A DNA stretch of 64,000 nt from an uncultured virus (IMG/VR IMGVR_UViG_3300029317_000049) (IMGVR_UViG_3300029317_000049); one strand, 5' to 3'. Shown: positions 20,962-36,444, numbered from the stretch's first letter. Numbers and translations are program-made. The notes: a model not told the origin generated them from the sequence alone.

Positions 20962-20987
20962 TTATGTTTTATTGTTTGGTGTTAATT

Positions 20988-21236: not shown

Positions 21237-21324
21237 GTTGGTTATTCTGTTGCATTCCCCCATTGGTTATTCATCTTAGTAATCTATAAACTTGCTCCCC
21301 ACTTTCTAACTCAAAGGCTTCTTT

Positions 21325-21374
21325 GTGCATTCCTGACATTATCCTCAAAATATTTGCCATATATTTTCTAATGA
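21325..21374 (+). repeat. 50-bp site, copy W
   Basis: GTGCATT...GACATTATC-N9-TTTGCCATATATTTTCTAATGA; gap-free alignment with copies at 29073, 34374, 36068. Confidence 0.85.
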
Positions 21375-21489
21375 TAGTTAAATGTTCCTAAACAAAACAC
21401 CCCACCTTATATCATTTTTGAGCTATGACAGTTAATGCGATACTACCTTGTCACCATTAAAGCTATTCAATTAAATGCAGAGCTATTAA

Positions 21490-21585
21490 TGTCAGGATTT
21501 TTTACACAACCATGCATACACATCGCTAAAAAAAAGGTAATCAACTGAAAATTGTATATTTAAATGGTGTGGTTTAAATGTTGCA
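21490..21585 (+). promoter_or_regulatory. Enhancer (TGT-N11-ACA) and sigma54 -24/-12 promoter of the PEP-CTERM gene
   Basis: TGTCAGGATTTTTTACA 21490-21506; TGG-N10-GCA 21570-21585. Confidence 0.6.
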
Positions 21586-21681
21586 TCTTAGGATGCATAA
21601 AGGAAATTAGTCATGGTGTCATGTTCCTTATCAAAGGTGAAAAAACATAAGTTTCTAATATAAATATAGGAAAGAATAATC

Positions 21682-22224
21682 ATGATTACACAAAAAAATA
21701 AGAGAAATTATTGCATTATAATAATTTCTTTCTTTTGGCTTTTACTACTATGTAACACAGCACAAGCCACTTTAATTACCTATCAAATGAATTTAGATGG
21801 CGCACAAGAAGTGGGTGCTGGTGATCCTGATGGGCTAGCTTTTGGCACCATTAGTTTTGATAACGTGACAGGGTTGGTGTCTTGGGATTTAACCCACGCA
21901 AATATACTTTCCCCGCTAGCAATGCATGTTCATGGTCCCTTTGGAATTGCTGGAGTCAATGCTGGAGTGTTTTTCAGTATGGGAGTTGCGACATCAGGGG
22001 GGGCAAATACTTTAATTGATACCACTAACATTAGTCTTGCTGACATCAGTGCAATTACCTCGGCTCCAACGGGTTTTTATATCAATATACATACATCGGA
22101 CTTTCCTCCAGGCTCGGTAAGAGGGCAGCTGGGCAATATAGCAAACATACCCGAACCCACAACAATCGCCATTTTCGTATTTGGTCTGATAGGCTTGGGG
22201 TTAGGTAGATTTAAAAAGCGATAG
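21682..22224 (+). CDS. CHRD-domain protein with PEP-CTERM sorting signal
   Basis: Signal peptide (AQA), LDGAQEV, MHVHG, FYINIHT..FP.GSVRGQL, IPEP-TM-RFKKR tail. Confidence 0.9.
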   Translation: MITQKNKRNYCIIIISFFWLLLLCNTAQATLITYQMNLDGAQEVGAGDPDGLAFGTISFDNVTGLVSWDLTHANILSPLAMHVHGPFGIAGVNAGVFFSMGVATSGGANTLIDTTNISLADISAITSAPTGFYINIHTSDFPPGSVRGQLGNIANIPEPTTIAIFVFGLIGLGLGRFKKR

Positions 22225-22292
22225 TGATATAACTAAATTAACGCGACTGATACTTAGCTTATGTACTTAAAGCATCTACCCAAAGTGGAGGG

Positions 22293-22332
22293 AAATCTAA
22301 GGGGTCAGAACAATTTGATTAAAGCCACTAAA
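22293..22332 (+). repeat. GGGGTCAGA hairpin element; 40-bp direct repeat with 22714-22752
   Basis: AAATCTAAGGGGTCAGAACAATTTGATTAAAGCCACTAAA. Confidence 0.85.
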
Positions 22333-22407
22333 GCGGTCTTTCAGGTATCTGTATCGACGTGTTTTCAAAGTACTACAAACTTATCAGCAATTAAATCCCA
22401 CTAGCTG

Positions 22408-22435
22408 AAATCAATCGCTCTGACCCCATTGATTT
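22408..22435 (-). repeat. GGGGTCAGA hairpin element (inverted)
   Basis: Reverse complement identical to 29950-29977. Confidence 0.85.
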
Positions 22436-22453
22436 CTTATTTAATTAAATAGC

Positions 22454-22636
22454 TTAGAATTTTCGCTCCTGCCCATCTTCCTGTTTAGGGATGAAAAGTG
22501 CTAAAACGACAACGAGTGAGATAACGCCACCGGCTATATAACCAAAGCGCTCTAGGCTAACGCCTTCAATGCCATACGCATGATGGAACAGAAATGCTGC
22601 CAAGCAAGCTACCATGATGGCTATAAATATTTTCAT
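22454..22636 (-). CDS. Small two-TM membrane protein
   Basis: 60 aa, AAGGAA RBS, two hydrophobic segments. Confidence 0.65.
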   Translation of the reverse strand: MKIFIAIMVACLAAFLFHHAYGIEGVSLERFGYIAGGVISLVVVLALFIPKQEDGQERKF

Positions 22637-22713
22637 AATGTTTCCTTAAGTTTTTACTGCTATTTATCCCCACATATTACTAAATTTAGGCTTATTAGCC
22701 ACCTTTGTTTTAA

Positions 22714-22752
22714 AAATCTAAGGGGTCGAACAATTTGATTAAAGCCACTAAA
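22714..22752 (+). repeat. GGGGTC(A)GA hairpin element
   Basis: One-base deletion relative to 22293-22332. Confidence 0.85.
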
Positions 22753-22800
22753 ACGGGGGAACTACATTGTCCGTTTAATTGCCTTGTTATATTTTTTATA

Positions 22801-22830
22801 CCATAATCCAATATATATTGGTACTTATGG
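22801..22830. promoter_or_regulatory. Palindromic operator of parDE
   Basis: CCAATATATATTGG flanked by CCATAA/TTATGG just upstream of parD. Confidence 0.55.
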
Positions 22831-22840
22831 GTTTTACATT

Positions 22841-23080
22841 ATGGCTAAAAATACAAGCGTAACATTGGGCGAACATTTTGATCAATTTATAAACCAACAA
22901 CTTAACACTGGTCGTTATGGCTCAGCAAGTGAAGTTGTTAGAGCCGGATTAAGAGCTTTAGAAGATCAAGAAGCTAAGGTATTAAATTTACGCAATATGC
23001 TGATCCAAGGTGAACAAAGCGGCATTTCTGATTACAGTTATGAAAGTTTATTGACAGAGCTAGATAAAGATAACCATTAA
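22841..23080 (+). CDS. parD: ParD-family antitoxin
   Basis: NTSVTLG...GRYGSASEVVRAGLRALE. Confidence 0.9.
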   Translation: MAKNTSVTLGEHFDQFINQQLNTGRYGSASEVVRAGLRALEDQEAKVLNLRNMLIQGEQSGISDYSYESLLTELDKDNH

Positions 23081-23373
23081 TGAACAAATTTTTATTATCT
23101 TCAAAAGCAAAATCAGATTTAATTAAAATAGCTAAATACACCCAATTAACTTGGGGTAAGGCTCAGAGAAATGATTATTTAAAGGTATTAGATAATACGT
23201 TTCAATTATTAGCTACTGAACCAGAATTAGGTTTTAATTGCGATTATATTCGAGAAGACTACAAGAAGTACCCTCAAGCTAGCCATGTAATTTATTACAA
23301 AGAGCATAAAGCTAATCAAATTTTAATCGTGCGTATATTGCATAAAAGTATGGATGTTAACTCCGCACTCTAG
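23080..23373 (+). CDS. parE: ParE-family toxin
   Basis: AKSDLIKIAKYT..WG...HVIYY...IVRILHKSMD. Confidence 0.9.
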   Translation: MNKFLLSSKAKSDLIKIAKYTQLTWGKAQRNDYLKVLDNTFQLLATEPELGFNCDYIREDYKKYPQASHVIYYKEHKANQILIVRILHKSMDVNSAL

Positions 23374-23376
23374 AAA

Positions 23377-23407
23377 AAAATCAAAGGGGTCAGAACAATT
23401 TGATTTT
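23377..23407 (+). repeat. GGGGTCAGA hairpin element
   Basis: AAAATCAAA-GGGGTCAGAACAA-TTTGATTTT right after the parE stop. Confidence 0.8.
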
Positions 23408-23466
23408 TAATACCCGATAACCTCTGTATTTTGGCCTCTCCATCATACTACCCCAAGTTAAGGGCA

Positions 23467-25725
23467 TTAAGCTTGCATTAAGCCGGCATCCCACCAACCG
23501 GCTTCAGCTTCACCGTCTGCTATTTCCCTGGCATAAACCCAATCACTGCCAATTGGCATAGCCCTACCCTCGTTATTTGCCTTAACAAATGCTGTGGCTA
23601 CCATTTCACGTGATTTCTGCCAATCTGCTTCAAATGGTCGGTTTCGCCCCTCACTACGCGCAAAAATATGCGCCCAATGGTCAATTTCATTGCGTTTTTG
23701 TAAATCGATCTGATTTTCATCTTCTAAAATGATTAGTTTTTGACCCTCAATAGAGAGGATCCGATCATCAACCCTGATCCTTTTCCCTTTTTTCAGCTCA
23801 TTAACCTGGTAATTACCTAAACCTAAACTAAAAAGCTTTCTCGCCTCTCTAGCCGCTGCACCCAAAGGCGTACAGTTATTCCCACTAGTCCAAGATTGGT
23901 CGGCTGCGCCGACAAAGCCCAACTCCTGAGCATTCTTAGCGGCTGTACCTTTTAACTGTTTTACCCATTGGGTAACGCGCGTTAATAAACTTACCGTTTC
24001 TTCACTATCAGTAACGCCTTTAACTTTTCGGGTTAACTCGCCATATTTATTGCCAAAGGGTATTTGTTCATATGCGGTTTTAAAATTGGCATTGCGGCCA
24101 ACACACATGCCGCCCATCAGTTTTACAAAGTCTTTCCAGCTACCTCGGTCTGCGGCCTCGCGGATTTCTTCTAATTCGGCATGGTCTACTTTGTCGCGTT
24201 GTCTTCTTAATTCACGGTAAACGGTAACGCTTGGTGAGCCTTGAAACTGAAACTGACGAATACCCCAAGTGCTAGCCCAGCAAAGTACTGGGTTAACTTT
24301 GATTTTTTCGCCCGTCTCTTCATCTTCAAGATCGGTAATTTGATAAGCATCTAAGTTTTTAGATATATATTTGGCAATGTAGCCGGTAGCGCTGCCCTTA
24401 CTCGGGTCTATGCGTTCAACAAGAACGCGTGGTGAAAAGGTGCGAAAATCTTTACTTGGTTCTTTGGCCTTAATGCCTTGGCTTTTTTTATGGCCCCAAT
24501 CTCGTCTTTTTAATTTGTAAGCCTTAAAAAGTGATTTTCTGTTGTCGTACCTTTTTATTAATTCTACTCGGTCTTCAGAAATAAAGTATTTACGAATAAT
24601 AGCGGTAACGGTTTGCTCTTTCTTTTTTGGCACAAATAGCATCATGTGCCAATGTGGGCAACCATCTGCGTGTGCTTCAGCAACGCGCATACCAAAGTAC
24701 ATTACGCCTAATCTACCTAACTTTGCTCGGGCACGTGCCCAAGTTTCTACCATATATTTTTGTGATTCTTTAGGTGTAGCACCGTTCCAGTTTGCTGCAC
24801 CAGGATGATATTTTGACGGGCAAGTAAGCGTATAAAACACACCAACAAAACCTAGCTCTGTGGCTATCTCTTCGCTTTCGCGTAAACGCAACATGGTTTC
24901 ACAACGTCTAATTGCTGGGTTGGCAATACCTGCTTTTACTGCTTCGAGTAAATCAATTACTACGCCATCTTCATTTTCTATTTCTAACTTGCTCAGATAA
25001 TCAAGGACTGAACGTTGGTCTTCTGCAAATTCTCGCTGTGCTTTTTTTGAGGTGTACGGGTTAACATTTTTATGTGTAACTTTTTTACCTTTACCGACAT
25101 AAAAGGTCGCTTTACCAACACTGCCCATGGCAAGTTCAATATGTTCAAGATATTGCTTTCTCACGGTTTTAAGTTTTTTCTTCCACCAGTCTTCGCACAA
25201 TATTTTAAGTAACGATATTTCAAGCGCTTCAACGGGCTGCTGGTCTCTAACATGCCAATACTTAGGAGTAACATTCATGGACAAGCAAAATTCGCCCAAT
25301 TTTTCAAAAGTGTGGATAATGCTTTCTTCAAGGCTAAGGTCTGCGGTTTCTTGGGCAATTTCAGATAAGTGTTTACTGCAATCAAGTGCGGTTTTTATTG
25401 CGTGGTCCTTGGTGCGCTCTTTGCTTTCAATAATGTGCCAAGGCAGTGGCATGCTGTTACATAAGGTAAATAACCGAGCAAAACGGTTTCGTCCTTTTTC
25501 ACTAGTGCGTCTTAACCATTTGTTGGCATTAATAGTGCTATTGCCGCCTTTGCGGTTATACATGGTAAAGTATTCACGCGCTACACGAGTTTGCAACGGA
25601 ATGGGCATTCTACTTAACCCCAGCGCTAAAAAATTGTAGTTACGAATGTCTTCAATGCTACTCACCATAGTGGCAGCAGTACCAGACAGGTTTAACGTGG
25701 CTAACTCAACACGTTGGTCTCTCAT
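23467..25725 (-). CDS. Rolling-circle replication endonuclease (P2 gpA-like)
   Basis: FYTLTCPSKYH, EAHADGCPHWH (HUH), YIAKYISKN, WGIRQFQF. Confidence 0.95.
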   Translation of the reverse strand: MRDQRVELATLNLSGTAATMVSSIEDIRNYNFLALGLSRMPIPLQTRVAREYFTMYNRKGGNSTINANKWLRRTSEKGRNRFARLFTLCNSMPLPWHIIESKERTKDHAIKTALDCSKHLSEIAQETADLSLEESIIHTFEKLGEFCLSMNVTPKYWHVRDQQPVEALEISLLKILCEDWWKKKLKTVRKQYLEHIELAMGSVGKATFYVGKGKKVTHKNVNPYTSKKAQREFAEDQRSVLDYLSKLEIENEDGVVIDLLEAVKAGIANPAIRRCETMLRLRESEEIATELGFVGVFYTLTCPSKYHPGAANWNGATPKESQKYMVETWARARAKLGRLGVMYFGMRVAEAHADGCPHWHMMLFVPKKKEQTVTAIIRKYFISEDRVELIKRYDNRKSLFKAYKLKRRDWGHKKSQGIKAKEPSKDFRTFSPRVLVERIDPSKGSATGYIAKYISKNLDAYQITDLEDEETGEKIKVNPVLCWASTWGIRQFQFQGSPSVTVYRELRRQRDKVDHAELEEIREAADRGSWKDFVKLMGGMCVGRNANFKTAYEQIPFGNKYGELTRKVKGVTDSEETVSLLTRVTQWVKQLKGTAAKNAQELGFVGAADQSWTSGNNCTPLGAAAREARKLFSLGLGNYQVNELKKGKRIRVDDRILSIEGQKLIILEDENQIDLQKRNEIDHWAHIFARSEGRNRPFEADWQKSREMVATAFVKANNEGRAMPIGSDWVYAREIADGEAEAGWWDAGLMQA
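23872..23913 (-). other. Candidate replication origin inside gpA
   Basis: CTTGGACTAGTGGGAATAACTGT resembles the P2/186/HP1 ori; GTCGGC/GCCGAC hairpin upstream. Confidence 0.7.
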
Positions 25726-25988
25726 TAGAAAGGCATCTCAGGAAAGTTAATCAACTCTTCATGTAATGAAAGTCTGTATAACGGTCTTTTCTTATTTAAT
25801 ATAGAAAAGCTTAAATGCCAGATTCTCAAATCTAACTCTGTACTTAATGAGGTGATATTCATTAACTCATTAATTACATATGAAATAATTAACCATCGTT
25901 CACCTTTTCTCGGTGATGTCTTGGCTTGTTTAAGTTGTTCAAAGGCCAACTTAACTTGGGAACGGTCGTGTATCGTTATATATGCCAT
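25725..25988 (-). CDS. Hypothetical early protein
   Basis: Coupled to neighbours. Confidence 0.6.
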   Translation of the reverse strand: MAYITIHDRSQVKLAFEQLKQAKTSPRKGERWLIISYVINELMNITSLSTELDLRIWHLSFSILNKKRPLYRLSLHEELINFPEMPF

Positions 25989-26272
25989 TACCCTTCCCCC
26001 AACGTAATTTCGCTGATGTCTTCACCTCGTTGCATTAAATCAATGGTGCTTTCAATTTTGTTGGCTATGTCCTTACTGGTTAACTTCGGTAGCATTTTTA
26101 CTAGTGGTAACAAGGTCGTTAATTGCTCTTCACAATAAACATAAAAATGCATGGTTGAACGCTTGTTAAACATGAAAATGGCATGGTTTACCGTGTCTAA
26201 AATATGCGCAACGATGCTATCTTCTAAATCGATTTTTGGTGTTTCTGCTGAATTTTGGGTGCGTTTGTTCAT
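25988..26272 (-). CDS. Hypothetical early protein
   Basis: AAGGAA RBS; coupled. Confidence 0.6.
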   Translation of the reverse strand: MNKRTQNSAETPKIDLEDSIVAHILDTVNHAIFMFNKRSTMHFYVYCEEQLTTLLPLVKMLPKLTSKDIANKIESTIDLMQRGEDISEITLGEG

Positions 26273-26327
26273 GGCTAGTTCCTTTGCGTTAATTTTTTGG
26301 TATTTGTGGTGGTGGGTTTACGGTGGT

Positions 26328-26900
26328 CTAAATAATTTCGGTATACGTTAAGCCTGAAAAGCCTTTTTGAAATACAAAGTGGGCATATTCAATACTGTCT
26401 GTTTTATTTGGAAATTCAGGGTTAAAGCCTGGTCGTTTATGGTGAACATAAATGTGTTTTAATGGAGCTGTATCCCAAAACGGTTTGCGCTTGGCTGTTC
26501 CTAACCAATTTAAACGTTGAAGCATTACCACAAAACCACCGTAATTTACTTCACGAAGTGCTTTTTTAGCGAACTCAACACTGCGGTCAAATGGTGGGTT
26601 AGTAATAATTAGGTCATACCCTAAATTAACCGACTTAAAATAGTCACTGCTTGGGTTAGCTGCTCGGCTATCTTCTCTAATATCTGCCGTGGTAATGTCG
26701 GTAAAGCCAAAATCTTTTAATACTTTCGGGTAACTCATTTCATACTGACCACAACCACCCGCACTTGGGTCAAACGTTGGCTTGGTTAAATCTATGTTGT
26801 AAGCGGGTACAAAAACGGGCAAAAACTCAGTAATTAACCAATGTGGTGTTACGTAATAATCGTTAGCGTTTCGCTCTGTTCCTCGGCATGTACTGCTCAT
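26328..26900 (-). CDS. Orphan amino-DNA methyltransferase
   Basis: DYYVTP, FDPSAGG (motif I), ITNPPF (motif IV); GGAG RBS before ATG 26900. Confidence 0.8.
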   Translation of the reverse strand: MSSTCRGTERNANDYYVTPHWLITEFLPVFVPAYNIDLTKPTFDPSAGGCGQYEMSYPKVLKDFGFTDITTADIREDSRAANPSSDYFKSVNLGYDLIITNPPFDRSVEFAKKALREVNYGGFVVMLQRLNWLGTAKRKPFWDTAPLKHIYVHHKRPGFNPEFPNKTDSIEYAHFVFQKGFSGLTYTEII

Positions 26901-26901
26901 A

Positions 26902-27261
26902 TCAATACTTCTCCGCGTAAAGAAACTTTGATGTTTCCATCGCATTGGCATCGCGAAACATTGCTGCCACTTGTCCTAAAGATACAATGGCATTTTTAAT
27001 TGATTTTCTACTGTCTGCGTTTAAATTTACAAAGGTAACTTCATGGTCAATTCGACTTAAACCAGCAGTAAAACACAAAGCTGCGCGTTGTTTATCTGTT
27101 AATAAACAATCATAAATATATGCTGGGTTTCTTGATTTTGAGTTAAGCTTTTGTCGAATTTCTGCTAAACATTCTGCGCCTGTTTTTACTGATGATTTTT
27201 CAACTAATCTTAGTGGCGTTATTGCTTGCGCTTCATTAATCTGTGATTTTTTGGCTAACAT
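26902..27261 (-). CDS. P2-family early protein (gpB-like?)
   Basis: LTDKQRAALCFTAGL pattern; early operon position. Confidence 0.45.
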   Translation of the reverse strand: MLAKKSQINEAQAITPLRLVEKSSVKTGAECLAEIRQKLNSKSRNPAYIYDCLLTDKQRAALCFTAGLSRIDHEVTFVNLNADSRKSIKNAIVSLGQVAAMFRDANAMETSKFLYAEKY

Positions 27262-27290
27262 GGCAATTCCTTAAGTTAATCAACTAAACG

Positions 27291-27593
27291 TTAAGCGGCG
27301 TTTGCTTGGGCAATGGCGGCTTTGTTATCAATGCGCTGTTGCTTAATTTGGTTGCTGTATGTCAACTTAAAACCTACAAAGCCAATGCGCTTATATTCTT
27401 CAATATCACTTTTCAACCAGCCAACACGCCCTTCGGTAATTTGGTGCTGCAACGGGAATTGGTTTCTTTCCATAGCGCGATAAATGGTCGCGCGACTCAT
27501 ACCGCAGTATTCTGCAACTTCTTTTGCGCTTAAAAAACGGTCTTCCAAGGTAATTGGCTCACCTTTAATGTTTGTTTTTGGATTTATATTCAT
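27291..27593 (-). CDS. AlpA-family HTH (excisionase-like)
   Basis: EVAEYCGMSRATIYR...FP...VGWLKSDI. Confidence 0.85.
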   Translation of the reverse strand: MNINPKTNIKGEPITLEDRFLSAKEVAEYCGMSRATIYRAMERNQFPLQHQITEGRVGWLKSDIEEYKRIGFVGFKLTYSNQIKQQRIDNKAAIAQANAA

Positions 27594-27859
27594 TCGATAA
27601 CTCCTTTATTATTTGAATCTTTCCCTGCGCACTTATCTGCTTCCCATTGCTTAGCAAGTCTAATAAGTTCATCTTTAAAAAACGTAACTCCACCATAGGC
27701 GTCGGCAAACACACTATTTACTGTTGCGTAGCTGTAATCTAAGGCGGCATGACAAACCATTTCTTCAAGAGAGTAGTCACTATTAACTAATGCTGCTGCC
27801 CTTTCTGAATAGCTATACTGTGCTTGCTTTGCTGGTGTTTTGTTGTTTTTTTGGCTCAT
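27590..27859 (-). CDS. Hypothetical early protein
   Basis: Coupled ORF. Confidence 0.6.
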   Translation of the reverse strand: MSQKNNKTPAKQAQYSYSERAAALVNSDYSLEEMVCHAALDYSYATVNSVFADAYGGVTFFKDELIRLAKQWEADKCAGKDSNNKGVIE

Positions 27860-28077
27860 GTTGCTACACCTTGTTCGTGGTTTTTTTCATGATCAGCCAG
27901 TAATGCTTCAACCGTGATTTCACCATTGGTTAGCTCTGATATTTTCTTGATGTATTTAGCTGGTGCTTGGCCGTGACGGTTAGTCCAATTTGATACAGCT
28001 GTTGGTTGCTTTCCCAATATTCTCGCCAATTTCGTTTGACCCCCTATTTGTTCAATAGCTCGTTCAATTGCTGACAT
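27856..28077 (-). CDS. Cro/YdaS-like HTH repressor
   Basis: GGQTKLARILG..PTAVSNW; divergent from CI. Confidence 0.85.
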   Translation of the reverse strand: MSAIERAIEQIGGQTKLARILGKQPTAVSNWTNRHGQAPAKYIKKISELTNGEITVEALLADHEKNHEQGVAT

Positions 28078-28094
28078 GTTTTTAATCCTTACTT

Positions 28095-28236
28095 AACAAC
28101 TTTTACACATCATATGATCGCTTTAAGTGGTTGTAAACCACTTTATGTGTTTATTGTTTAAATAAAAACAACTAATAACTATTTGACCTAAACCACTTAA
28201 AGTTATATTAATAGCGTTATAACCACAGAAAGTGTT
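28095..28236. promoter_or_regulatory. CI/Cro operator array
   Basis: AAGTGGTT-GTA-AACCACTT 28125-28143; AACCAC-led dyads at 28136, 28191, 28221. Confidence 0.6.
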
Positions 28237-28261
28237 TTTAATTAACTATTTAGGAGTTAAT

Positions 28262-28888
28262 TTGGGTATTGCAGGACGAGTAAGAGAAAGAAGAACAGCA
28301 TTAGGATTCACTCAATTACAGTTAGCTGAAAATGTTGGTGTTGCTCAGAATTCAATACAAAAAATTGAAAGTGGTGACACTAAAAACCCACGTAACATTG
28401 AAGCACTAGCTCGTGTTCTTAAATGCACCCCAGAATATTTGCGTTTTGGCGTAGGTGAAATGGATAACGCAGCAATAGAACCAGACTTAACAAAAAGCAT
28501 TCCGATAATTGATTATGTTCAAGCCGGTGCGTGGGGTGATATTGAAGGCGTTCAAGAAACTAGCGAAATAGATAATGCTGAGCATTTTGTATGCCCGATA
28601 AACTGTAGTGACTCTTCGTTTGCACTAAGGGTTCAAGGCATCAGTATGGAGCCTAAATTTTTAGACGGTGACTTGATTTTTGTAGATCCCGAATCAGAAT
28701 CTATAAACGGCTCTTATGTTGTGGCAAGGTTAGAAGATGATAACCAAGCCACGTTTAAGCAGTTGGTTATTGAAGGTAATCAAAAGTTTTTAAAGCCACT
28801 TAATAAAGATTGGCCAGATCAACTAATACAGATTAACGCTAATTGCACCATTGTTGGCAGGGTAATTTTTACAGGTAAGGAACTTTAA
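28262..28888 (+). CDS. CI-like repressor (HTH + S24 peptidase)
   Basis: Xre HTH, VQAG cleavage site, GISMEP (Ser), TFKQL (Lys); TTG start after AGGAG. Confidence 0.92.
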   Translation: MGIAGRVRERRTALGFTQLQLAENVGVAQNSIQKIESGDTKNPRNIEALARVLKCTPEYLRFGVGEMDNAAIEPDLTKSIPIIDYVQAGAWGDIEGVQETSEIDNAEHFVCPINCSDSSFALRVQGISMEPKFLDGDLIFVDPESESINGSYVVARLEDDNQATFKQLVIEGNQKFLKPLNKDWPDQLIQINANCTIVGRVIFTGKEL

Positions 28889-29072
28889 TAAATCAAGGAA
28901 TGCCTGGGATAAAATGTACCCCGTAGATACTTGGGAGTGTACAAGATCCAAGAAGATATCTGGCCTACAAAAAAGTGAGAATAAGGTGGTCAAAAGCCGA
29001 TGTAATGCTTTGAGAATGTGGTAATGGTGCCAATATCCGACTAAATCAACAATATCCCAATAGTCACTCTGT

Positions 29073-29122
29073 GCGCATTGAAGACGTTAGCATTTAATTA
29101 TTTGCCATATGTTTTCTAATGA
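29073..29122 (+). repeat. 50-bp site, copy X
   Basis: GCGCATT...GACGTTAGC-N9-TTTGCCATATGTTTTCTAATGA. Confidence 0.85.
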
Positions 29123-29293
29123 ATTACGTCTGTTATTTACTTAATTTTATGTACAGCTCCACCAGAGGTTTACACTTTTTGCGAGAAAGAAGGCATAGCG
29201 CCATTTTTGTACTTAGGGTATAAAATCTAGTTCTTGTTAATTTATTGAGAATCATCGAGTTAACCGTTATTATTAAACTCAATAAATTATGAA

Positions 29294-29353
29294 AGGAGGC
29301 ATGGTGCCTTGTTTAAATAGGGCACCATGCCTCCTAATAAGCTGTTATGTTGC
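29294..29353 (+). other. 42-bp palindrome plus attI-like site
   Basis: AGGAGGCATGGTGCC...GGCACCATGCCTCCT, then AATAAGCT-GTTATGTTGC core. Confidence 0.55.
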
Positions 29354-29408
29354 TAATGAAGCTGATTAGTCCTGATGTGAATGTTAAACCAACAAGGAAG
29401 TGTTACAA

Positions 29409-29933
29409 ATGATAGGTATTATTGCTTTTTCTATTCTCTTTATTTTAATTTATATGGTTCATCGCATTGCTAAACGTTTTTCAACTGATTTTTCAACTGA
29501 TGATAATCCGAAATTACGGAAGCTTTTATATAGGATTGCACTAGGGTTTCTTATTTTTGTGCTAGTGGGTGATGAAATTATAGGAGGCACACAACTGGCA
29601 TATTTTTGTCTTTCAGAACCAAAAAGACAAGTGTTTGTGGATGAACTTGAAGGTCGTACTATTCAAGGACGTAATACTACTTTTATTAAAGAATACACGC
29701 CACTCGATATAGAAAAAAGGATAACTGAAATATTTGATATTAATAGCCACGAACTAGTGTTTAAAAGGTACTGGTATTCTGCTAAGGGTGGATGGCTGAG
29801 TCGTACAATATCTTTTAATGGAAGTAAAAACCCACTTTTGTTTGATGGTAATTGCTCTAACACTAAAAAACTTAAACAATTAAGATTAACAAATAAAATG
29901 AATTACATACGCACAGAATTGACGGCGTTTTAA
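29409..29933 (+). CDS. Membrane protein, gene cassette 1
   Basis: Two N-terminal TM segments; flanked by GTTATGTTGC / GCAACATAAC. Confidence 0.7.
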   Translation: MIGIIAFSILFILIYMVHRIAKRFSTDFSTDDNPKLRKLLYRIALGFLIFVLVGDEIIGGTQLAYFCLSEPKRQVFVDELEGRTIQGRNTTFIKEYTPLDIEKRITEIFDINSHELVFKRYWYSAKGGWLSRTISFNGSKNPLLFDGNCSNTKKLKQLRLTNKMNYIRTELTAF

Positions 29934-29950
29934 CTCGCAACATAACTGTA

Positions 29951-30012
29951 AATCAATGGGGTCAGAGCGATTGATTTCTTTCCCTCACCAAAAGCTAACG
30001 TCAAAAAAGTGC
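29951..30012 (+). repeat. 62-bp direct repeat, left copy (starts with GGGGTCAGA hairpin)
   Basis: 61/62 identical to 34314-34375. Confidence 0.9.
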
Positions 30013-30416
30013 CTTGAGTTCAAATAGTCAGTGCAACACACCTTAAGCTGACGTTAAGTTTAATGCTGCTATTGGCAACTGTGAGCCTAAAGCAGTCATT
30101 AACTTAATTTGAGTTCAAGGTAACTTTGTGCCAACAATCGTCTTTCGCTAACATATGATAAATATTCCCTTAGTCCGTATTTATATATTCTTTCTTATCA
30201 TATTTGGTATTAGTTCCATTAATATAAAAACTGAGTGTTTTTACGTTAAATCAACAGCTTGATGGTTTAGCTATACCAACGGATGATATATCAAGCTAAC
30301 TGATTACAAGTCCGCTACGTGGTATAGCTAATCCTACTAGTTATGCGGCTTAACAGTATGAATAATATCTTTAAATACAATAATAGCCCTATGAGTTTTC
30401 AACCCAATTTATTGCA

Positions 30417-32384
30417 CTAATTATATTTTTTCAGCAAAGCATTGGCTTTATTTGGCAAAAATAACACTCTATTCGTTTTTAATGTTTGAGGGTATTTATT
30501 CAAACCTGTTGCAAGAATTACTTGATAATTCTTTTGATAATCATCAAGAGCTTCAAGTTTATTTATGCACTTAATTAAGTTATCTAGCTCTATTCCTGCT
30601 GTCTCTGGGGTATCAACAATTAAAAACTTAGGAAAAGCCACATCATCATATTTTAATGACATGTTCATCAAAGCAACATAGTACATCATTCTCATAGATA
30701 CTAATGAACTTGCTTCTCGGTATTCACCATCATTAATAAGTGGCAGGTAGTCATCTAAGCTTATACGCGCAGATCTACAATCTGATAATGTATCGGTCAT
30801 TAATTCATTGTAAATAGCACTAAAAGCACTTACTTTGGTACTAACTTCTCTTTTTGTTTTTGATTCTAACTCTTTTCTTTTTAATTCTGCATCTTGCGCT
30901 TTAGAACGTTTAGCTTCAAAATCTTTTTGGAGTTTTTGAAGCTTGCCTTCGATTTCAATTAACTGTTCTAGTTTTCCACTATCCTCTCGAATATCAAGAA
31001 TTTTATCATCAATATCATTGAGACTATCAATATCAATTTCATCATCAATTTTTTCAAGATTTTTTCTTAGGCCAGACTTTAAACTAGGTAATTTAGCTGA
31101 TAATTCTTTAGACTTACCCTTTTCCTGTTGTATATCCAAATTACAATCTGAGATGGCTAACTTTATAGTCGCTAACGTTTTAGTTTTTGATTTTAATATT
31201 TCTTTATATTCTTGAGATGTATAAAAAAATCTTTCATATTGCTCTTCATTAATATCTGAACCACATACACATTTACCATGTCCTCTATCGACTTTTACTA
31301 AGCAGTATGGACAAGTATCACCAGAAAATAAATTTAATTGATCATGTGTATGTATTATTTTGCTAATTTGATTTATTTCACTGATGGTCTCATTCTGAAT
31401 TGTAACTAATTTATATCTTTCATTATAAAGTGATAATAAAATTTCTTTTATATCCCCTAGCTCTAATTCTATTTCTATAATTTGGTTCTTTAAATGCTCT
31501 ATATTGGGCTCAACCGAAACTCGGCAATTTCGGTTCTTCTTAAATGCTTCTCTAGCAGCTTGCAATTTTTCTAACTGAAGATCATTAGCACGCTGCTCAT
31601 TTTGAAGGAAATTAATGTTTTTTAGCTCACCATCACCTCTGATTTTGTCGGCTAGTAATGAATATTCATTTACCAAGCTTTTAGCTACATTCTTATCTTT
31701 ATCTTTTGTTTTAGCATCAACGATAGAGTCATAGTATTCAGAAAATGATTTACCGATTAATAATTCAAAAATAGCTTTACGTAAAATTTCAGAATCAGAC
31801 ACATGATTTTGCTTGATATCTATTTTTTTATAAATATATTCTGGATCTGGCTGTTGATCGTGATACATCAATCTGAAGAGATCGGTAGAGTTAATTTTGA
31901 AGGTGGAATACCCTTGATAAATTTCAACTACAGAAATACCAAGCTCTTTTAATAACCAGTCAGAAAAAGTATATGGCGTATTTTCTCTACGATATATTGG
32001 TAATATAGAAGTGTTTTGAGCATATTTATCTGTGGAAAATGTAATATTTCCATTTTCGGGATCTATTAATTCATCATATTCTGTAAGTGTTACATCATTA
32101 TCATTCAGATATCTTCGTAATTGGTAGTTTCCAACAGAAACCGATATATATATTTCAACGTAATTATTTGTATCTGAAGTTACTTCTTTGTGTTTTTTCT
32201 TTTCGCTATCTTTACGAAATTCTTCAACTCTACCGCCAAAAGCATAGTAAATTAAGTTACAAAGAGTCGTTTTTCCAGTACCATTATCACCTTCAATTAA
32301 TACAATGTTTTTGTCAAAAATTTCTGACTCAAAATGATATTTGTCTCCAGAATAGATAACTTGATTGACTCTTAAATAACCCAT
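30417..32384 (-). CDS. SMC/Rad50-like ABC ATPase (LmuB-like)
   Basis: GDNGTGKT, coiled coils, CPYC..CVCG hook, FLIVDTP Walker B. Confidence 0.85.
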   Translation of the reverse strand: MGYLRVNQVIYSGDKYHFESEIFDKNIVLIEGDNGTGKTTLCNLIYYAFGGRVEEFRKDSEKKKHKEVTSDTNNYVEIYISVSVGNYQLRRYLNDNDVTLTEYDELIDPENGNITFSTDKYAQNTSILPIYRRENTPYTFSDWLLKELGISVVEIYQGYSTFKINSTDLFRLMYHDQQPDPEYIYKKIDIKQNHVSDSEILRKAIFELLIGKSFSEYYDSIVDAKTKDKDKNVAKSLVNEYSLLADKIRGDGELKNINFLQNEQRANDLQLEKLQAAREAFKKNRNCRVSVEPNIEHLKNQIIEIELELGDIKEILLSLYNERYKLVTIQNETISEINQISKIIHTHDQLNLFSGDTCPYCLVKVDRGHGKCVCGSDINEEQYERFFYTSQEYKEILKSKTKTLATIKLAISDCNLDIQQEKGKSKELSAKLPSLKSGLRKNLEKIDDEIDIDSLNDIDDKILDIREDSGKLEQLIEIEGKLQKLQKDFEAKRSKAQDAELKRKELESKTKREVSTKVSAFSAIYNELMTDTLSDCRSARISLDDYLPLINDGEYREASSLVSMRMMYYVALMNMSLKYDDVAFPKFLIVDTPETAGIELDNLIKCINKLEALDDYQKNYQVILATGLNKYPQTLKTNRVLFLPNKANALLKKYN

Positions 32385-32899
32385 GTTTTTATGCCTCGTT
32401 CCCTGTAGATTTTACCTAACATAGTATCCAGAGTAAGTGTTGATAGTCGTTTTATATTAGTTTTCAAACTGTTTAAGTTATTATATTCTTTTCCAAAAAC
32501 TTTTTTATCAAAGAATGTTTTTGGTAGGTTTTTCTTATTTAATGATACGTTCACTAGCGATGAAATATTTCCTTTTTCCAGAGAGATAAACCCTTTTTTC
32601 TCTAAAGTAAAAAGTAATTTCAGAACCTCACTACGTCTCGTTAACCCATTGGAGTAGCTGTTAAATAAATATTCTTTATCAATATTGTTATGTGATTCTG
32701 AATCTAAGTTATTTAATATGTACACTAGCCTTTCATCTTTTATAAAATCGATTATAAAAGCGAGCTTTCTGTAATCTTTAAAATATTTACCATCATTGCA
32801 TTTTAATGAATCTAGAGTAATTATTACTGCATAGCAAAATAGATAAAAATCTTCACCGGATAAGTACATTATTCCTTTTTTGACATTAATATTTTTCAT
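32372..32899 (-). CDS. ABC-3C middle component (LmuC-like)
   Basis: 175 aa, coupled between effector and ATPase. Confidence 0.65.
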   Translation of the reverse strand: MKNINVKKGIMYLSGEDFYLFCYAVIITLDSLKCNDGKYFKDYRKLAFIIDFIKDERLVYILNNLDSESHNNIDKEYLFNSYSNGLTRRSEVLKLLFTLEKKGFISLEKGNISSLVNVSLNKKNLPKTFFDKKVFGKEYNNLNSLKTNIKRLSTLTLDTMLGKIYRERGIKTWVI

Positions 32900-34138
32900 T
32901 TATTTCTCGTCAAACGAAACAAAACAGCTATCAATCAAATCCATGACAACGCCATCAATTGTATTTTTATTAGATATTGTATAATTGTAGTCTTTTTTCA
33001 ATTCTTCTATATGCTCAGATGATGCCGCATTTAACCCTTTAATCGTTGAATCTACTTCAGCTATAGAATTAGGCTCTGGAAAATCGTTATCGAACAAATA
33101 TTGATTACAAGCTTCATATGTTCGGTATTTAAGAGAGAGAAAAGACTTGTTGCCTGCTAGCTGTTCTACTTTAGAACGGCTAGCTAGTCGCGCCAAATGT
33201 CCCAGTTTTCGCTCAGGGTAATCAGGGCATACAGATATTATTTTTTCTGATAAGTTACGTTTATCCGTAATTTCTTTCTCTAAGGCTTCAATTGAATTCC
33301 AAGTTGGATCAGTTGCATGATCTATTTCTTCGGACTCAGCTTCTTTAAAAACTAGCCTTACATCAGATGAATGAACAAACCTACCTGCATAACTTGAATT
33401 ATTTTGTCTTTCATCAATAAGTTCCATCAATAAAGAAAATATAATTTCTTCTTTATTTGCTATTCTTGAATTGTATAACTGAGAGTTTCTTATTAAAGAT
33501 AGGACAGTAGTTTTTAAATCTACTTCATTTTCTTCACCAAAATGCCATTTAATCCTATCTAAAAAATTTTTAAAATCGTCAGAATTAATAACTTTTAAAG
33601 TCTCAACGTGGCCATCAACTTTTTTATCTTGGTATTGCTTTGTATACTCTTCTAATACAATTGATTTTACGGTGTCAACCAGTTCTAGTGAAGTTGAATC
33701 ATTACTCATTAAAATCGACAGGATTGGCTCTTTAGGTAATTTAATAATAGTGCCATTATCGAGCTTTGTCTTTTTTTCCTTTCCTATACCTGAGGTTGTA
33801 TAAAAACCGAGGTTTAATTCATCACTAGCACGCCAAGTATTAATGTAAATATCAAAAAAACTGACTAATGTATTTTTAACTTCATTACTGAAAATAGTAA
33901 AATTAGTCTTTGAATCATAATTTTTATCTTCTTCTACATATTGCGCTGACAATTCACTAGATTCAATTGTGTGGGAAATATCTTCGATGACTTCTATTGC
34001 AGTGTAGAAAATAGAACTTTTTTTATGGTTTAAAGAATCAAGCATTAACTTGATGGCTCGAATTTTTTGTAGCCTAAATCCTTTTGACTTATCTGCCGCT
34101 TCGCGGTTGATTGTTTTATTTTCCATAATATATGTCAA
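32900..34138 (-). CDS. Nuclease effector (Cap4/LmuA-like) with C-terminal domain
   Basis: KGFRLQ...EVIEDI...EEDKNY restriction-fold pattern; first gene of the operon. Confidence 0.7.
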   Translation of the reverse strand: MTYIMENKTINREAADKSKGFRLQKIRAIKLMLDSLNHKKSSIFYTAIEVIEDISHTIESSELSAQYVEEDKNYDSKTNFTIFSNEVKNTLVSFFDIYINTWRASDELNLGFYTTSGIGKEKKTKLDNGTIIKLPKEPILSILMSNDSTSLELVDTVKSIVLEEYTKQYQDKKVDGHVETLKVINSDDFKNFLDRIKWHFGEENEVDLKTTVLSLIRNSQLYNSRIANKEEIIFSLLMELIDERQNNSSYAGRFVHSSDVRLVFKEAESEEIDHATDPTWNSIEALEKEITDKRNLSEKIISVCPDYPERKLGHLARLASRSKVEQLAGNKSFLSLKYRTYEACNQYLFDNDFPEPNSIAEVDSTIKGLNAASSEHIEELKKDYNYTISNKNTIDGVVMDLIDSCFVSFDEK

Positions 34139-34270
34139 GAGCCCTGCGCTAGTAATACTTAATGTTTTTGTTGTTATGTATCAATAATTAATATAACACT
34201 TATGTCAAAATTTTGTCGATAATGAACTAATTAATTATTTGTGAATAAAAAGACCCTTTAGTTAAAAAAA

Positions 34271-34375
34271 CCAATGGGGTCAGAGTAAATCAATGGGGTC
34301 ATAAAATCAATGTAATCAATGGGGTCAGAGCGATTGATTGCTTTCCCTCACCAAAAGCTAACGTCAAAAAAGTGC
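34271..34375 (+). repeat. Tandem CAATGGGGTCA copies plus right 62-bp repeat
   Basis: GGGGTCA at 34276, 34295, 34321. Confidence 0.9.
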
Positions 34376-34460
34376 GCATTAGAGACATTAGCCTTACTTT
34401 TTTTGCCATATATTTTCTAATGAATATTTCATGTCATGTTACTGAGCCGGCTCAGTAACA
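34357..34460 (+). repeat. Full GC-centred dyad, 50-bp site copy Y and 24-bp palindrome
   Basis: GCTAACGTC-N8-GC-N8-GACATTAGC; TTTGCCATATATTTTCTAATGA 34402-34423; TGTTACTGAGCCGGCTCAGTAACA 34437-34460. Confidence 0.85.
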
Positions 34461-34648
34461 CACCTAAAGAACACCAATAAACGTATATTTGATTGATCTT
34501 ACTGTAATTAACACCGTTTTTTATAAGGGCTATTACTGCGTGGGCTTAGTAACATCCTATTTTCAATGGAAAATTCCGTTATTGTGGTTTCTAATACTTT
34601 GAATTTGTGGGATATTAATGTAAATTAATTTTAAATTATGGAATGGAC

Positions 34649-34683
34649 ATTATTGAGCCGGCTCCATAATAAGCTATTAGCTA
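34649..34683 (+). other. Palindrome plus degenerate attI-like site
   Basis: ATTATTGAGCCGGCTCCATAAT then AAGCT-ATTAGCTA; shares TAATAAGCT with the 29335 site. Confidence 0.5.
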
Positions 34684-34707
34684 GCAAACCCAAAGGTTGT
34701 CCAAATC

Positions 34708-35250
34708 ATGTCATTATATTTATATTTCCTGCCACCGATATTAGCTGTTATTTACAAGTGGCTGGAGTACGCTGGCATAATAGACAAATTAACTGGTCGA
34801 GGTTTAGCTTTAGATGGCCTTAAAAGGCTAAGATCTACATCAGGTTACCCAAAAGCTTGGATTTATAATAAAGATCAAGATGAAAAAATATTTAGAGCTA
34901 TAGAGAAGCGAATCTCAAAAAATACAGACCAACCGATTATAATTTCTGCAATAAAAAATGGTTTTAAGCCAAACCTCATTTCAGTTGGCGGAAAACCTAC
35001 TGAGATTGAAGGCTTACCGACTGAGTGGCCACAAGCTGAAAGGTTCTCATACTTACCAAATCAACCTGTACTTTATTTTTTTGAAGTTCCTAAATCAAAA
35101 ACTGGTACAAAATGTGACAGAGCTTGCACGTTAGATGAATTGGATGGTTGGTTAAAAGAAGAAAAAGATAATAGAACCTTTTGGCTCGGTACATTTCTTT
35201 TAGGTGTGATTTCTATCACTTTCCTTTTAGTTAGGCTAAATATTGCTTAG
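34708..35250 (+). CDS. Membrane-anchored hypothetical protein, cassette 2
   Basis: Terminal hydrophobic segments; flanked by ATTAGCTA / TAGCTAAT. Confidence 0.7.
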   Translation: MSLYLYFLPPILAVIYKWLEYAGIIDKLTGRGLALDGLKRLRSTSGYPKAWIYNKDQDEKIFRAIEKRISKNTDQPIIISAIKNGFKPNLISVGGKPTEIEGLPTEWPQAERFSYLPNQPVLYFFEVPKSKTGTKCDRACTLDELDGWLKEEKDNRTFWLGTFLLGVISITFLLVRLNIA

Positions 35251-35345
35251 CTAATAAGGAAATCAAACGGACACGCAACTGTTGGCTGCGTTTCGCTACA
35301 CAATCTTAGCCAACTATTACTTAGCCTGTTATTTAGGCTTTATTC
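35248..35345 (+). repeat. Degenerate attC site
   Basis: Inverse core at stop codon, internal GTTGGCT/AGCCAAC dyad, core-like end; similar to 36997-37074. Confidence 0.7.
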
Positions 35346-35359
35346 ATAAGAAGTAGACT

Positions 35360-35980
35360 GTGAGTAAATTTGATATAAAAGTACAAATGAATCCTGTAAT
35401 AATGTCCATATTAGCCTTGTTAGTTTCATTCATTGGTTTGTTTTTTTCGTACCAGGCTAATGATTTAGCAAAAGAGCAATACCGACAAAGTAGGTTAATT
35501 GTTTTAAAAGCTGATTTTCTAAAACAAGATGATACCTTTATTCATGTTGAACCTATTGATGGCAATACTCATTTTATACGGGGAACTGCTTATTTACCTC
35601 CTGTGATTCATAAAGAAGAAGTACCTATTGCCTCTAATGGTAATATTTTACACATGGGTTCTATTAGTTCAGAAATTAAAGATCATTTTTTAACTTACGT
35701 ATCTTCTGAGAAAGGTATAACTAAAATATCAGAGGGAGATATCCCTGTTTTAATCAAATCATACTATGTATCGAAAGGTGTCGGATACACAGATATATCG
35801 TTATATATGCTTGGCATGCAAGTCATATTAACGGAAGAACAACATGCGAGGCCAAAAATACAATTTACGAGCTTGGCATTTATCGAACGTTATAACGAAC
35901 TCAATGATATTAACTATGAAATGCTGGATGCTATGGTTTCAAGTGAAAAAGGATTTCAGTTACCTATCAATAAGCCTTAG
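35360..35980 (+). CDS. TM-anchored hypothetical protein, cassette 3
   Basis: Flanks TTTATTCATAAG / CTTATGTATAAC are 10/12 complementary. Confidence 0.7.
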   Translation: MSKFDIKVQMNPVIMSILALLVSFIGLFFSYQANDLAKEQYRQSRLIVLKADFLKQDDTFIHVEPIDGNTHFIRGTAYLPPVIHKEEVPIASNGNILHMGSISSEIKDHFLTYVSSEKGITKISEGDIPVLIKSYYVSKGVGYTDISLYMLGMQVILTEEQHARPKIQFTSLAFIERYNELNDINYEMLDAMVSSEKGFQLPINKP

Positions 35981-36067
35981 AACTTATGTATAACAAGTGA
36001 CTATGGTGAGTTATCAATACAAAACCTAATCCGAAAAATTGTGTTGCACTGACCGTTTGAAATCACA

Positions 36068-36117
36068 GCGCTAAGCGGACTTTAGCATCAAATTTTTTAC
36101 CATATATTTTCTAATGA
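36068..36117 (+). repeat. 50-bp site, copy Z
   Basis: GCGC...GACTTTAGC-N9-TTTACCATATATTTTCTAATGA. Confidence 0.85.
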
Positions 36118-36425: not shown

Positions 36426-36444
36426 GTATTCTTCGAGGGAGCTT

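Follow-up and report, generated by a model that had tools for sequence, protein, structure and literature searches.

Four copies of a 50-bp site in a 64,000-nucleotide stretch of DNA from an uncultured virus (the window) are probably the left ends of an integron platform without an integrase gene. The 50 bp form only the left end of a longer repeat of ~100-400 bp, here called unit U, which is present in the window as copies W, X, Y and Z. We interpret the window as holding integrase-less platforms with cassettes, CALIN-like and partly in a P2-like prophage. The cassettes would have been docked at the core of U by an IntI encoded elsewhere on Colwellia chromosomes, and U probably supplies their transcription.

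An earlier note on this DNA had described four 50-bp copies, a dyad at copy Y and swapped arms, and all of these were found in the sequence, well over chance. The pattern GYGC-N6-GACNTTAKC occurs on the + strand at 21325, 29073, 34374 and 36068 and as reverse-strand images at 29994-30012 and 34357-34375, giving six matches in the window against 0.63 expected. The 22-mer TTTRCCATATRTTTTCTAATGA is exact at 21353, 29101, 34402 and 36096, always on the + strand; 0.01 copies were expected from 100 shuffles, none of which gave four. The Y dyad has the form GCTAACGTC-N8-GC-N8-GACATTAGC (34357-34392). The left arm at 29994-30012 ends a 74-nt near-identical repeat (29938-30012 vs 34302-34375) which stops exactly at GTGC, so that these two stretches are direct repeats flanking a Lamassu-like module. 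The inverted arm at 30015-30040 matches the reverse complement of 36040-36066 at 23 of 26 positions, where the note had counted 26/32 over a slightly longer span. Each copy is followed after 299-349 nt by a + strand ORF of 177-185 aa (starting at 21682, 29400, 34708 and 36445), ogr (Ogr_Delta, 20964-21236) precedes W, and an S24/HTH repressor gene (28232-28888) precedes X. The proposal that the sites mark cargo modules was supported, as was that of a recombination-based gene-capture apparatus with the enzyme presumed to act in trans, an idea that was right in spirit.

Features of the window from copy W rightwards, in order of position
Feature	Position	Strand	Evidence or detail
Copy W, left part	21313..21423	+	CM R1 63 bits, E 2e-12; 50-bp site 21325-21374, 22-mer 21353-21374
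W cargo gene, CHRD-domain protein with PEP-CTERM signal	21682..22224	+	Pfam CHRD 6.4e-15, PEP-CTERM 8e-4
ParD/ParE toxin-antitoxin, right end of W module	22784..23373	+	Pfam ParD 1.4e-31, ParE 2.3e-18
Copy X, left part	29059..29160	+	CM R1 79.9 bits, E 3e-16; 50-bp site 29073-29122, 22-mer 29101-29122
Copy X right end, long palindrome then TAATAAGCTG|TTATG	29276..29354	+	G|TT at 29344/29345
X cargo gene, 177 aa	29400..29933	+	no family match
74-nt module end (left arm) finishing GTGC	29938..30012	+	local alignment, repeated at 34302-34375
Second left-arm type, inverted	30013..30040	-	23/26 identical to copy Z left arm, 36040-36066
Three-gene Lamassu-like defence module	30417..34138	-	PADLOC LmuB 7.7e-61
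GCGC-centred dyad, left end of copy Y	34357..34392	+	
Unit U copy Y, full length	34372..34680	+	terminal-block HMM E 3.8e-13
Cassette gene Y1, 180 aa	34708..35250	+	no family match
Canonical Colwellia-type attC	35248..35349	+	CM R2 54.4 bits, E 6.7e-12
Cassette gene Y2, 206 aa	35360..35980	+	
Very short attC-like remnant after Y2	35990-36015		ATAACAAG...GAGTTATC
Unit U copy Z	36068..36419	+	CM R1 86 bits
Cassette gene Z1, 185 aa	36445..37002	+	no family match
attC of Z1, cut off at 37074	36996..37074	+	CM R2 match 36996-37096, 29.6 bits, E 3.3e-5

From left to right, U is composed of a variable left arm, the 22-mer, hairpin units, a promoter-like block and a terminal hairpin. The left arm forms with GACATTAGC a dyad across a GCGC centre, one to three hairpin units follow (palindrome ATTACTGAG-N4-CTCAGTAAT), and a GACATTA(C/G) box is present in both dyad and hairpin units. 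The terminal block ends in ...CCATAATAAGC(N)G|TTA, with the attI-type core ...ATAAGC(N)G|TTA, and in many copies the cargo ORF starts 10-40 nt past it. Subfamily alignments and an eight-genome alignment showed that conservation runs from GTGCGC, where homology starts across the eight genomes, to ...GTTA, with none outside. At the right boundary it stops at (G/A)|TTA and unrelated cassettes follow, on which the eight-genome alignment agrees; in the 22 RTTR-anchored copies, information content collapses after (G/A)|TTA, and pairwise identity falls from 0.45 ahead of the site to 0.30 behind it. The HMM detected the terminal block in 26/55 copies (E <= 1e-4), while 29/55 had no block as modelled. 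Two sequences depart from the conserved GTT, namely the core of Y, which is A|TTA, and the dyad of most copies, which has ATTAGC instead of GTTAGC.

The window copies retain these parts to varying degrees. In W the hairpin unit is unrecognisable, the terminal core is degenerate (near 21646-21660), and most of the attI-homologous part is missing. The right end of X gave a weak attC-model match (18 bits, E 0.04) and shares its layout with the intI-proximal site in four further Colwellia integrons. Copy Y contains the 22-mer (34402-34423), a hairpin unit at 34438-34459 and two more units, and its terminal block ends in ...CCATAATAAGCTA|TTAGC at ~34675/34676; BLAST homologues in other genomes cover exactly 34372-34680 with 70-82% identity. 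In copy Z the right dyad half (36068-36086) and the 22-mer (36096-36117) are accompanied by a single hairpin unit; a LexA-box-like CTGTATAAATACATAG occupies 36214-36229, the core spans 36399-36419 with G|TT at 36414/36415, and BLAST homologues of this copy cover 36075-36417.

Across five Colwellia genomes we found 8-35 copies of U per genome; the motif is scattered genome-wide, which counts against the earlier claim. A same-strand ORF starts 61-682 nt downstream in 48/55 copies, and no gene is conserved beside the 55, the biggest real neighbour cluster having three members. Using a genus-specific attC covariance model (CM R2), we found that a same-strand attC lies within 3 kb downstream of 21/55 copies and upstream of seven, with none on the opposite strand; the other 34 have no canonical attC in the 3 kb downstream examined. 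Five copies (Z, L010, L011, L049 and L058) adjoin a preceding canonical attC through a conserved GTTATCAATACAAAA start. A sixth match to this pattern, L022, is unlike the family, and the controls gave one match downstream and none on the reverse strand.

Three Colwellia genomes contain complete integrons whose attI region, reaching from intI to the first cassette, shows homology to the right part of U. In G006 the intI gene has a LexA box, and after it come three direct hairpin-unit repeats, ...TCTCCATAATAAGCTG|TTAT and a canonical cassette array; this intI-attI region aligns with U_Y, L049 and L016 along hairpin units, promoter-like block and terminal core. G024 repeats this layout, whereas G025 has one hairpin-unit match, with core and LexA box at the G006 offsets. 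The core AATAAGCTGTTA(T/G) is common to the four other integrons compared besides G006. U-left-like sequence flanks the intI 3' end in G006 and G024, and the 22-mer of dispersed copies occupies the position of intI in G006. Compared with the last 18 nt of the Shewanella-type attI quoted in PMC9892861, the Z core agrees at 15 positions; this is the best match in the window, and it scored above all 30 shuffles. The integron integrase TIGR02249 was above cut-off in 5/5 and 19/22 genomes searched in the genus. No integrase, resolvase or invertase family was found by Pfam among the 76 window ORFs; since intI is neither in the window nor recurrent beside the copies, the window holds no complete integron. 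The earlier note had suspected an undescribed system, but the attI-type core of U and the canonical-attC cassettes that follow it indicate a variant of a known gene-capture system.

In the window, U_Y and U_Z stand at the front of a small cassette array that includes canonical attC sites, and a single cargo gene follows each of U_X and U_W. The attC sites at 35248-35349 and 36996-37096 are both on the + strand, homologues of the former occur in many family genomes with 79-88% identity, and no canonical attC was found at W or X. The Lamassu-like module consists of an LmuB-like SMC ATPase (30417-32384) and proteins of 175 aa and 412 aa without family match. U_W sits between ogr and the replication gene, inside the variable hotspot of the P2-like prophage. 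The W module spans 21250-23400, and homology to the nearest related phage, L115, breaks at 21249 and 23401, the left break being 76 nt before the GC at which a cargo break had been expected.

Among known systems, a CALIN is defined by Cury et al. 2016 (PMC4889954) as two or more attC that share a strand within 4 kb and lack an intI in their vicinity. The window agrees with this, having two same-strand attC 1.65 kb apart and no intI family in its 76 ORFs; its cassettes encode small proteins of unknown function, and the genus encodes IntI elsewhere. It differs from a CALIN in that a long and conserved attI-like unit, itself recurring many times in a genome, stands at the head of the arrays, and in that canonical attC sites are absent altogether from copies W and X. 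[quoted passage not shown] Here too an integrase-less array lies within or beside a prophage whose host belongs to the Alteromonadales, and at the head of the array stands an attI-like site, with the Z core likeness given above. In contrast to M16-3, neither this prophage nor the window has intI, and the platform is 100-400 bp long with dyad, 22-mer and hairpin repeats, at 8-35 per genome. A sedentary chromosomal platform (intI, LexA-regulated promoter, attI and Pc) is seen in G006, G024 and G025; the right half of U is homologous to it and copy Z retains the LexA-box-like sequence, whereas the dispersed copies are without intI and LexA box, except for the relic in Z. The earlier comparison was with the pdif modules of Acinetobacter, in which exchangeable cargo likewise lies between short conserved sites and the gene for the enzyme is at another locus. 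Those modules are flanked by inversely oriented XerC/XerD sites; the sites here are in direct orientation and go with the direction of the following gene, and no XerD-type arm was found at them.

The left boundary of U counts against the platform reading, because IntI strand exchange is not expected at GCGC, and so do the copies without terminal block or canonical attC and the departures from GTT; no event mediated by IntI was seen. The dyad could instead be the crossover site of a serine recombinase or of Xer (dif-like) that joins module ends (left arms) to starts (right arms), which we regard as quite improbable. Left and right arm combinations do vary and switch at GCGC(A) in at least five copy pairs (L011/L046, L016/L024, L053/L060, L023/L033 and L022/L045), two left arms are joined tail-to-tail at 29994-30040, 74-nt direct repeats ending in GTGC surround the Lamassu-like module, and the first bases of U may resemble the XerC half of dif. 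The earlier expectation that cargo changes at the GC held in that copies sharing a left arm (28-87 nt) switch their right part just after GCGC(A); it failed in that the downstream cargo changes ~60-300 nt further on, at G|TTA and not at the dyad. The tail-to-tail junction sequence also occurs at L026 in another genome, so it belongs to a repeat family and is not a one-off product. Next to the 55 copies we found no conserved gene, whether for a recombinase or otherwise, the resolvase-domain scan of locus neighbours having covered 48 downstream ORFs, and Pfam found no recombinase in the window ORFs. A dif-like pattern gave no match in five genomes with up to three mismatches, and a shorter one was no better than its reversed control. 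A serine-recombinase res/att site as the earlier note had proposed was not supported, since the dyad is present but no such enzyme is implicated in the window or among recurrent neighbours, and the genus has the integron tyrosine integrase. Of the excision that the note had predicted between W and X, nothing was seen. A MITE or IS end was not supported either, because GTGCGCA... and ...GCTGTTA, with which U starts and stops, do not form inverted repeats and no transposase is linked, target duplications having been judged by eye.

Two further readings concern what U itself does. U may be a mobile, ORF-less, cassette-like unit with an integrase-type site at either end, the dyad at the left and the G|TTA core at the right, the dyad (GCTAAY...RTTAGC) being a miniature attC or attI-type simple site at which the integrase moves U; we consider this unlikely. 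It would fit the dyad arms of X and Y, which are exact complements of the R''/R' kind (GCTAACGTC / GACGTTAGC), the box shared by dyad and hairpin units, the copies that follow canonical attC through the GTTATCAATACAAAA start, the solo dyads without 22-mer near the G006 integron, and the high copy number. However, most dyads have ATT rather than GTT, the attC model gives no match on them, and copies with the same left arm diverge right after GCGC(A), ~8-9 nt short of the R|TT point at which exchange is predicted. The dyad is also ~38 nt long, and natural attC sites are not known to be this short. If U were such a unit, it would carry attI and promoter, so that the docking site itself is mobile, and a host integrase could start new mini-integrons without integrase at any place in the chromosome as well as within phage genomes; G006-type complete integrons would then be U that still contains intI. 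Against the platform reading, U is the attI region only in the integron type of G006, G024 and G025, so that it could have landed beside that intI rather than lost it.

We consider it very unlikely that U is a regulatory leader only. In that case its dyad would be terminator-like, it would contain a promoter, and its palindromes would be operators for a regulator of the host or of a phage; accessory genes would have this leader in common, homologous recombination would have spread it, and the integron link would stem only from one copy beside one intI type. The strict orientation to the next gene suits this reading, as do the strongly conserved block TTGAAnTTrTGGGATATTAAT, the order A-tract, dyad, T-tract in U copies, and the covariation of the hairpin unit, whose changes are G-U-compatible on the + strand only (0/500 shuffles reach the observed score; at columns 110-120, 18 copies have a GC pair and 13 a GU pair). 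Against it, homology stops exactly at G|TTA, right before unrelated ORFs, the core is common to the five integrons compared, and the attC cassettes that follow copies are all on the same strand. A TTGAA-N16/17-TAAATT/GATAAT-like block is conserved in U; a simple sigma-70 consensus scan found no promoter in U_Y or U_Z (three sites in the region vs 12.3 expected) and a consensus terminator scan found nothing in U.

The platform reading bears on how integrons are usually described, with one attI next to one intI and CALINs treated as broken-off pieces. Copies of U are followed by small cassette arrays and by single accessory genes, of which some are defence-like. If functional, an attI-type platform at 8-35 per genome would alter the one-attI-per-intI picture, spread cassette capture and expression in Colwellia over many docking sites, which phages could then carry, and give a concrete and testable source for CALINs; if the copies are inactive relics, U is an ordinary genus-specific repeat derived from integrons. 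No account of such a platform in Colwellia was found in the open-access literature, covered mostly at abstract level.

At the right end of the array, unrelated DNA begins at 37074, near the Mor end of the early-gene block of a Mu-like phage. Contigs of other runs go on past 37074 with the missing end of the attC, although through weak joints, and dozens of homologues of the Z1 attC all stop at this position.

The four copies of the 50-bp site, W, X, Y and Z, had been proposed in the earlier note to be res/att-like crossover sites of a serine recombinase, shuffling cargo modules at a GC dyad. The sequence elements on which the proposal was built (the four copies, the dyad of Y, its reused left arm and the inverted arm) were all found in the window. 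The 22-mer of the site occurred as four exact plus-strand copies with 0 mismatches (0.01 expected), and GYGC-N6-GACNTTAKC plus its reverse-strand images gave six matches (0.63 expected). About 300-350 nt after each copy, a plus-strand ORF of 177-185 aa starts; the four products showed no mutual relatedness.

Features of the window discussed in the text
Feature	Position	Strand	Remark
P2/HP1-like prophage	1 to about 29000		P2-family capsid, GpO, GpL, GpR, baseplate J, terminase, Ogr, GpA, Cro-like protein, S24 repressor
Copy W	21325	+	Cargo: CHRD/PEP-CTERM protein, then ParDE pair
Stem-loop repeat	22294-22320
Stem-loop repeat	22408-22434	-
Stem-loop repeat, near copy	about 22722
Stem-loop repeat	23379-23405
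Copy X	29073	+
Stem-loop repeat	29951-29977
Reused left arm of Y dyad	29994-30012
Inverted relative of 36040-36066	30015-30040		23/26 positions identical
Lamassu-like module	between X and Y		Three genes; LmuB 7.7e-61
Stem-loop repeat, partial copies	34270-34300
Stem-loop repeat	34314-34340
Y dyad	34357-34392		Verified
U_Y, extent of BLAST homology	34372-34680
Copy Y	34374	+
attC model match	35248-35349	+	54 bits, E 6.7e-12
Copy Z	36068	+
U_Z, extent of BLAST homology	36075-36417
LexA-box-like CTGTATAAATACATAG	36214-36229		Within copy Z
Repeated TGCGCAACT	36376-36401		2-3 times, immediately ahead of the Z core
attI-like match	36399-36416		15/18; directly precedes Z cargo
attC model match	36996-37096	+	29.6 bits, E 3.3e-5
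Mu-like phage	from 37.2 kb on		Mor, GemA, DUF3164, Mu portal, gpT and others

The conserved sequence reaches far past the 50 bp, which form the left end of a longer repeat, U. The exact 22-mer pattern matched 51 loci in the species-representative genome collection (36 titled Colwellia, 7 Alteromonadaceae and 8 other, mostly MAGs), and with a covariance model built on 54 copies, five Colwellia genomes yielded 15, 21, 35, 8 and 10 copies, which lie dispersed over many contigs, with local clusters at 1-4 kb spacing. The apparent invariance of the 22-mer is inflated because the copy sets were seeded with the exact 22-mer; copies found by the covariance model were more variable. Duplicates (L004, L017, L047, L057 and L059) and loci equal to the window (L001-L003 and L006-L008) were dropped from the counts. 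In order, U consists of a left arm, GTGCGC, GACATTAGC, the 22-mer, a palindromic hairpin unit and a terminal hairpin ending ...CCATAATAAGC(N)G↓TTA. Longer subfamilies have one or two extra hairpin units and a strongly conserved TTGAAnTTrTGGGATATTAAT block before the terminal hairpin, and in short versions (group D) the first and last hairpin units are merged. The conserved promoter-like block reads TTGAA...GGGATATTAAT. In the hairpin unit, 73.6% of cells were paired, with G-U-compatible changes on the plus strand alone, and its covariation score was reached by 0/500 shuffles, this support being limited to the hairpin that was specified by hand. RNAalifold on 54 copies gave no consensus structure, and Rfam had no family for the region, its two matches (E 0.057 and 0.61) both lying elsewhere.

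In 48 of 55 non-redundant copies, the 22-mer is followed at 61-682 nt by the start of an ORF on the same strand, 70 aa or longer. No neighbour gene recurs beside the copies: the gene clusters obtained were overlapping loci and one three-member tyrosine recombinase cluster. The encoded proteins are highly varied (AAA_15/AAA_21 ATPases, GmrSD, HNH, EndoU, PEP-CTERM, LysR and GGDEF), and 25 of the 48 had no Pfam match. Three other readings of the repeat were rejected: minus-strand coding of the 22-mer (its reverse begins ATG GCA AA) stops after four codons in X and meets stops in many copies, a conserved C-terminal CPxCG-like peptide upstream of some copies does not hold up across frames, and a MITE does not fit a repeat without terminal inverted repeats.

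Integron integrase scored over the curated cut-off in all five Colwellia genomes and, across the genus, in 19 of the 22 genomes searched. In the complete integron of G006, the right half of U fills the space from intI, with its LexA box, to the first cassette: three direct hairpin-unit repeats, the promoter-like block and ...TCTCCATAATAAGCTG↓TTAT. Beyond it lies a classic cassette array, in which small ORFs alternate with attC sites some 97 nt long. G024 has the same layout, and in G025 the core, the LexA box and one matching hairpin unit lie at the offsets of G006. Next to the 3' end of intI, G006 and G024 have a divergent version of U's left part, GGACATCAGC...TTTTTCTAATGG, so placed that intI occupies the position of the 22-mer in dispersed copies; in G002, a C-terminal intI fragment adjoins a reverse 22-mer. 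The other four integrons compared have unrelated intergenic regions with a common palindrome followed by AATAAGCTGTTA(T/G), and the right end of copy X has this same layout.

With an attC covariance model made from 16 sites of two arrays, two matches were found in the window (table). Same-strand attC sites lie within 3 kb downstream of 21 of the 55 U copies, the first usually 465-1564 nt past the 22-mer, about one cassette away, and none was on the opposite strand (0/55). This count left out three low-scoring antisense echoes of strong hits (L005 1963-2068 minus; L044 2190-2295 and 1425-1529 plus) and all L061-L067 rows. Seven copies have attC upstream, and U can therefore lie within arrays. 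For the final 18 nt of the Shewanella-type attI given in PMC9892861, the best window match lies directly before the Z cargo, above 30/30 shuffles. The repeat before the Z core recalls GCGCATGCGC of that attI in PMC9892861. The LexA-box-like sequence in Z has the same place as the intI-promoter LexA box of complete Colwellia integrons and may be left over from an intI promoter since lost.

When 34250-37150 was compared by BLAST with 201 genomes of the family, homologues covered U_Y, U_Z and both attC sites, and the cassette ORFs had none. Eight U copies aligned from eight genomes end sharply, with GTGCGC at their left edge and GTTA at their right; the switch of downstream cargo therefore falls at the attI-type core instead of the GC. 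The change at the GC expected by the earlier note thus fails for downstream cargo, whereas it holds for the upstream context, which switches at the dyad centre. Around W, the ogr-gpA interval of the nearest phage relative, whose GpA is 93% identical, is 3.7 kb of different DNA, and homology breaks at 21249 and 23401, so that the left break lies 76 nt ahead of the GC rather than at it. Among 26 related P2-like phage loci searched (35 found), none had U, and the site is therefore not a trait of this phage lineage; one weak attC-like match occurred, in L121. In this nearest relative of the P2-like phage (L115, from IMG/VR, 8323-12068), the 3.7 kb in the ogr-gpA hotspot are unrelated DNA that lacks both U and attC.

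The best reading, which we hold to be fairly probable, is that U is an integrase-less integron platform, at whose core an IntI encoded elsewhere would dock cassettes. U-headed cassette arrays fit the CALIN concept (attC clusters without an integron integrase) as outlined in PMC4889954, and an attI-headed CALIN in a Shewanella prophage, described in PMC9892861, is a precedent. What is unusual in U is the many copies of the platform and the elaborate left half.

For that left half, several candidate explanations stand beside the platform reading. The swapping of arms claimed in the earlier note is real and is the least explained feature: copy pairs with 28-87 nt of common left arm part ways immediately after GCGC(A). 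Another recombinase could use the dyad and 22-mer as its crossover site; the 76 window ORFs scanned gave no match to an integrase or resolvase family, and a dif-type Xer pattern gave nothing useful. Public runs were examined as Logan contigs and carry no weight as evidence for any reading: the W-X joint that would go with excision of about 7.7 kb was absent. Those contigs contained the joints 34679>36997, 34425>36994 and 35343>36999/37053, each in single contigs with sides of 22-70 nt, for which other repeat copies are a possible source; an RNA run contained 5% of sampled words.

The dyad and 22-mer could instead be a miniature attC or a simple site, U itself then being mobile. A terminator or operator is a further candidate; U has its paired hairpin unit and promoter-like block, and sigma-70 and terminator scans gave nothing within it. 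In L068 (G006:C29, 13975-14060), two GCGC-centred dyads stand back to back some 0.8 kb away from the intI 3' end, and no 22-mer accompanies them; a dyad can therefore exist alone.

Five small cargo proteins near the sites had no family match. Near-identical 74-nt direct repeats (29938-30012 and 34302-34375), both finishing in GTGC, bracket the 4.3-kb Lamassu-like defence module (30013-34301), which looks as if it was inserted where the X module end met U_Y. The attC of the last cassette is broken off at 37074, where homologues from dozens of genomes also stop; contigs from other runs carry a normal attC end past this point. Mor (37204-37542, minus strand) begins 130 nt beyond the break, and the Mu-like transposable phage, or DNA flanking it, has apparently inserted into an attC. 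The Mu-like early genes (Mor, GemA, DUF3164 and an AAA_22 B-like ATPase) lie on the minus strand at 37204-45620, and the lysis, head and tail genes on the plus strand at 46058-63834; this divergent layout departs from the usual Mu order and may be due to an inversion, to the presence of two elements or to a join made in assembly.

A second repeat, the stem-loop AATCAAn-GGGGTCAGArCr-ATTkGATT, was found at the 3' ends of cargo modules, with five window copies (0 expected), one exactly on the right edge (23400) of the W module, and no copy in the five Colwellia genomes searched. In another metagenome (run X7), contigs go from parE of the ParDE pair (22784-23373) into the reverse complement of an attC end at the place of 23378, and because of this the pair is probably a reverse-oriented integron cassette elsewhere.
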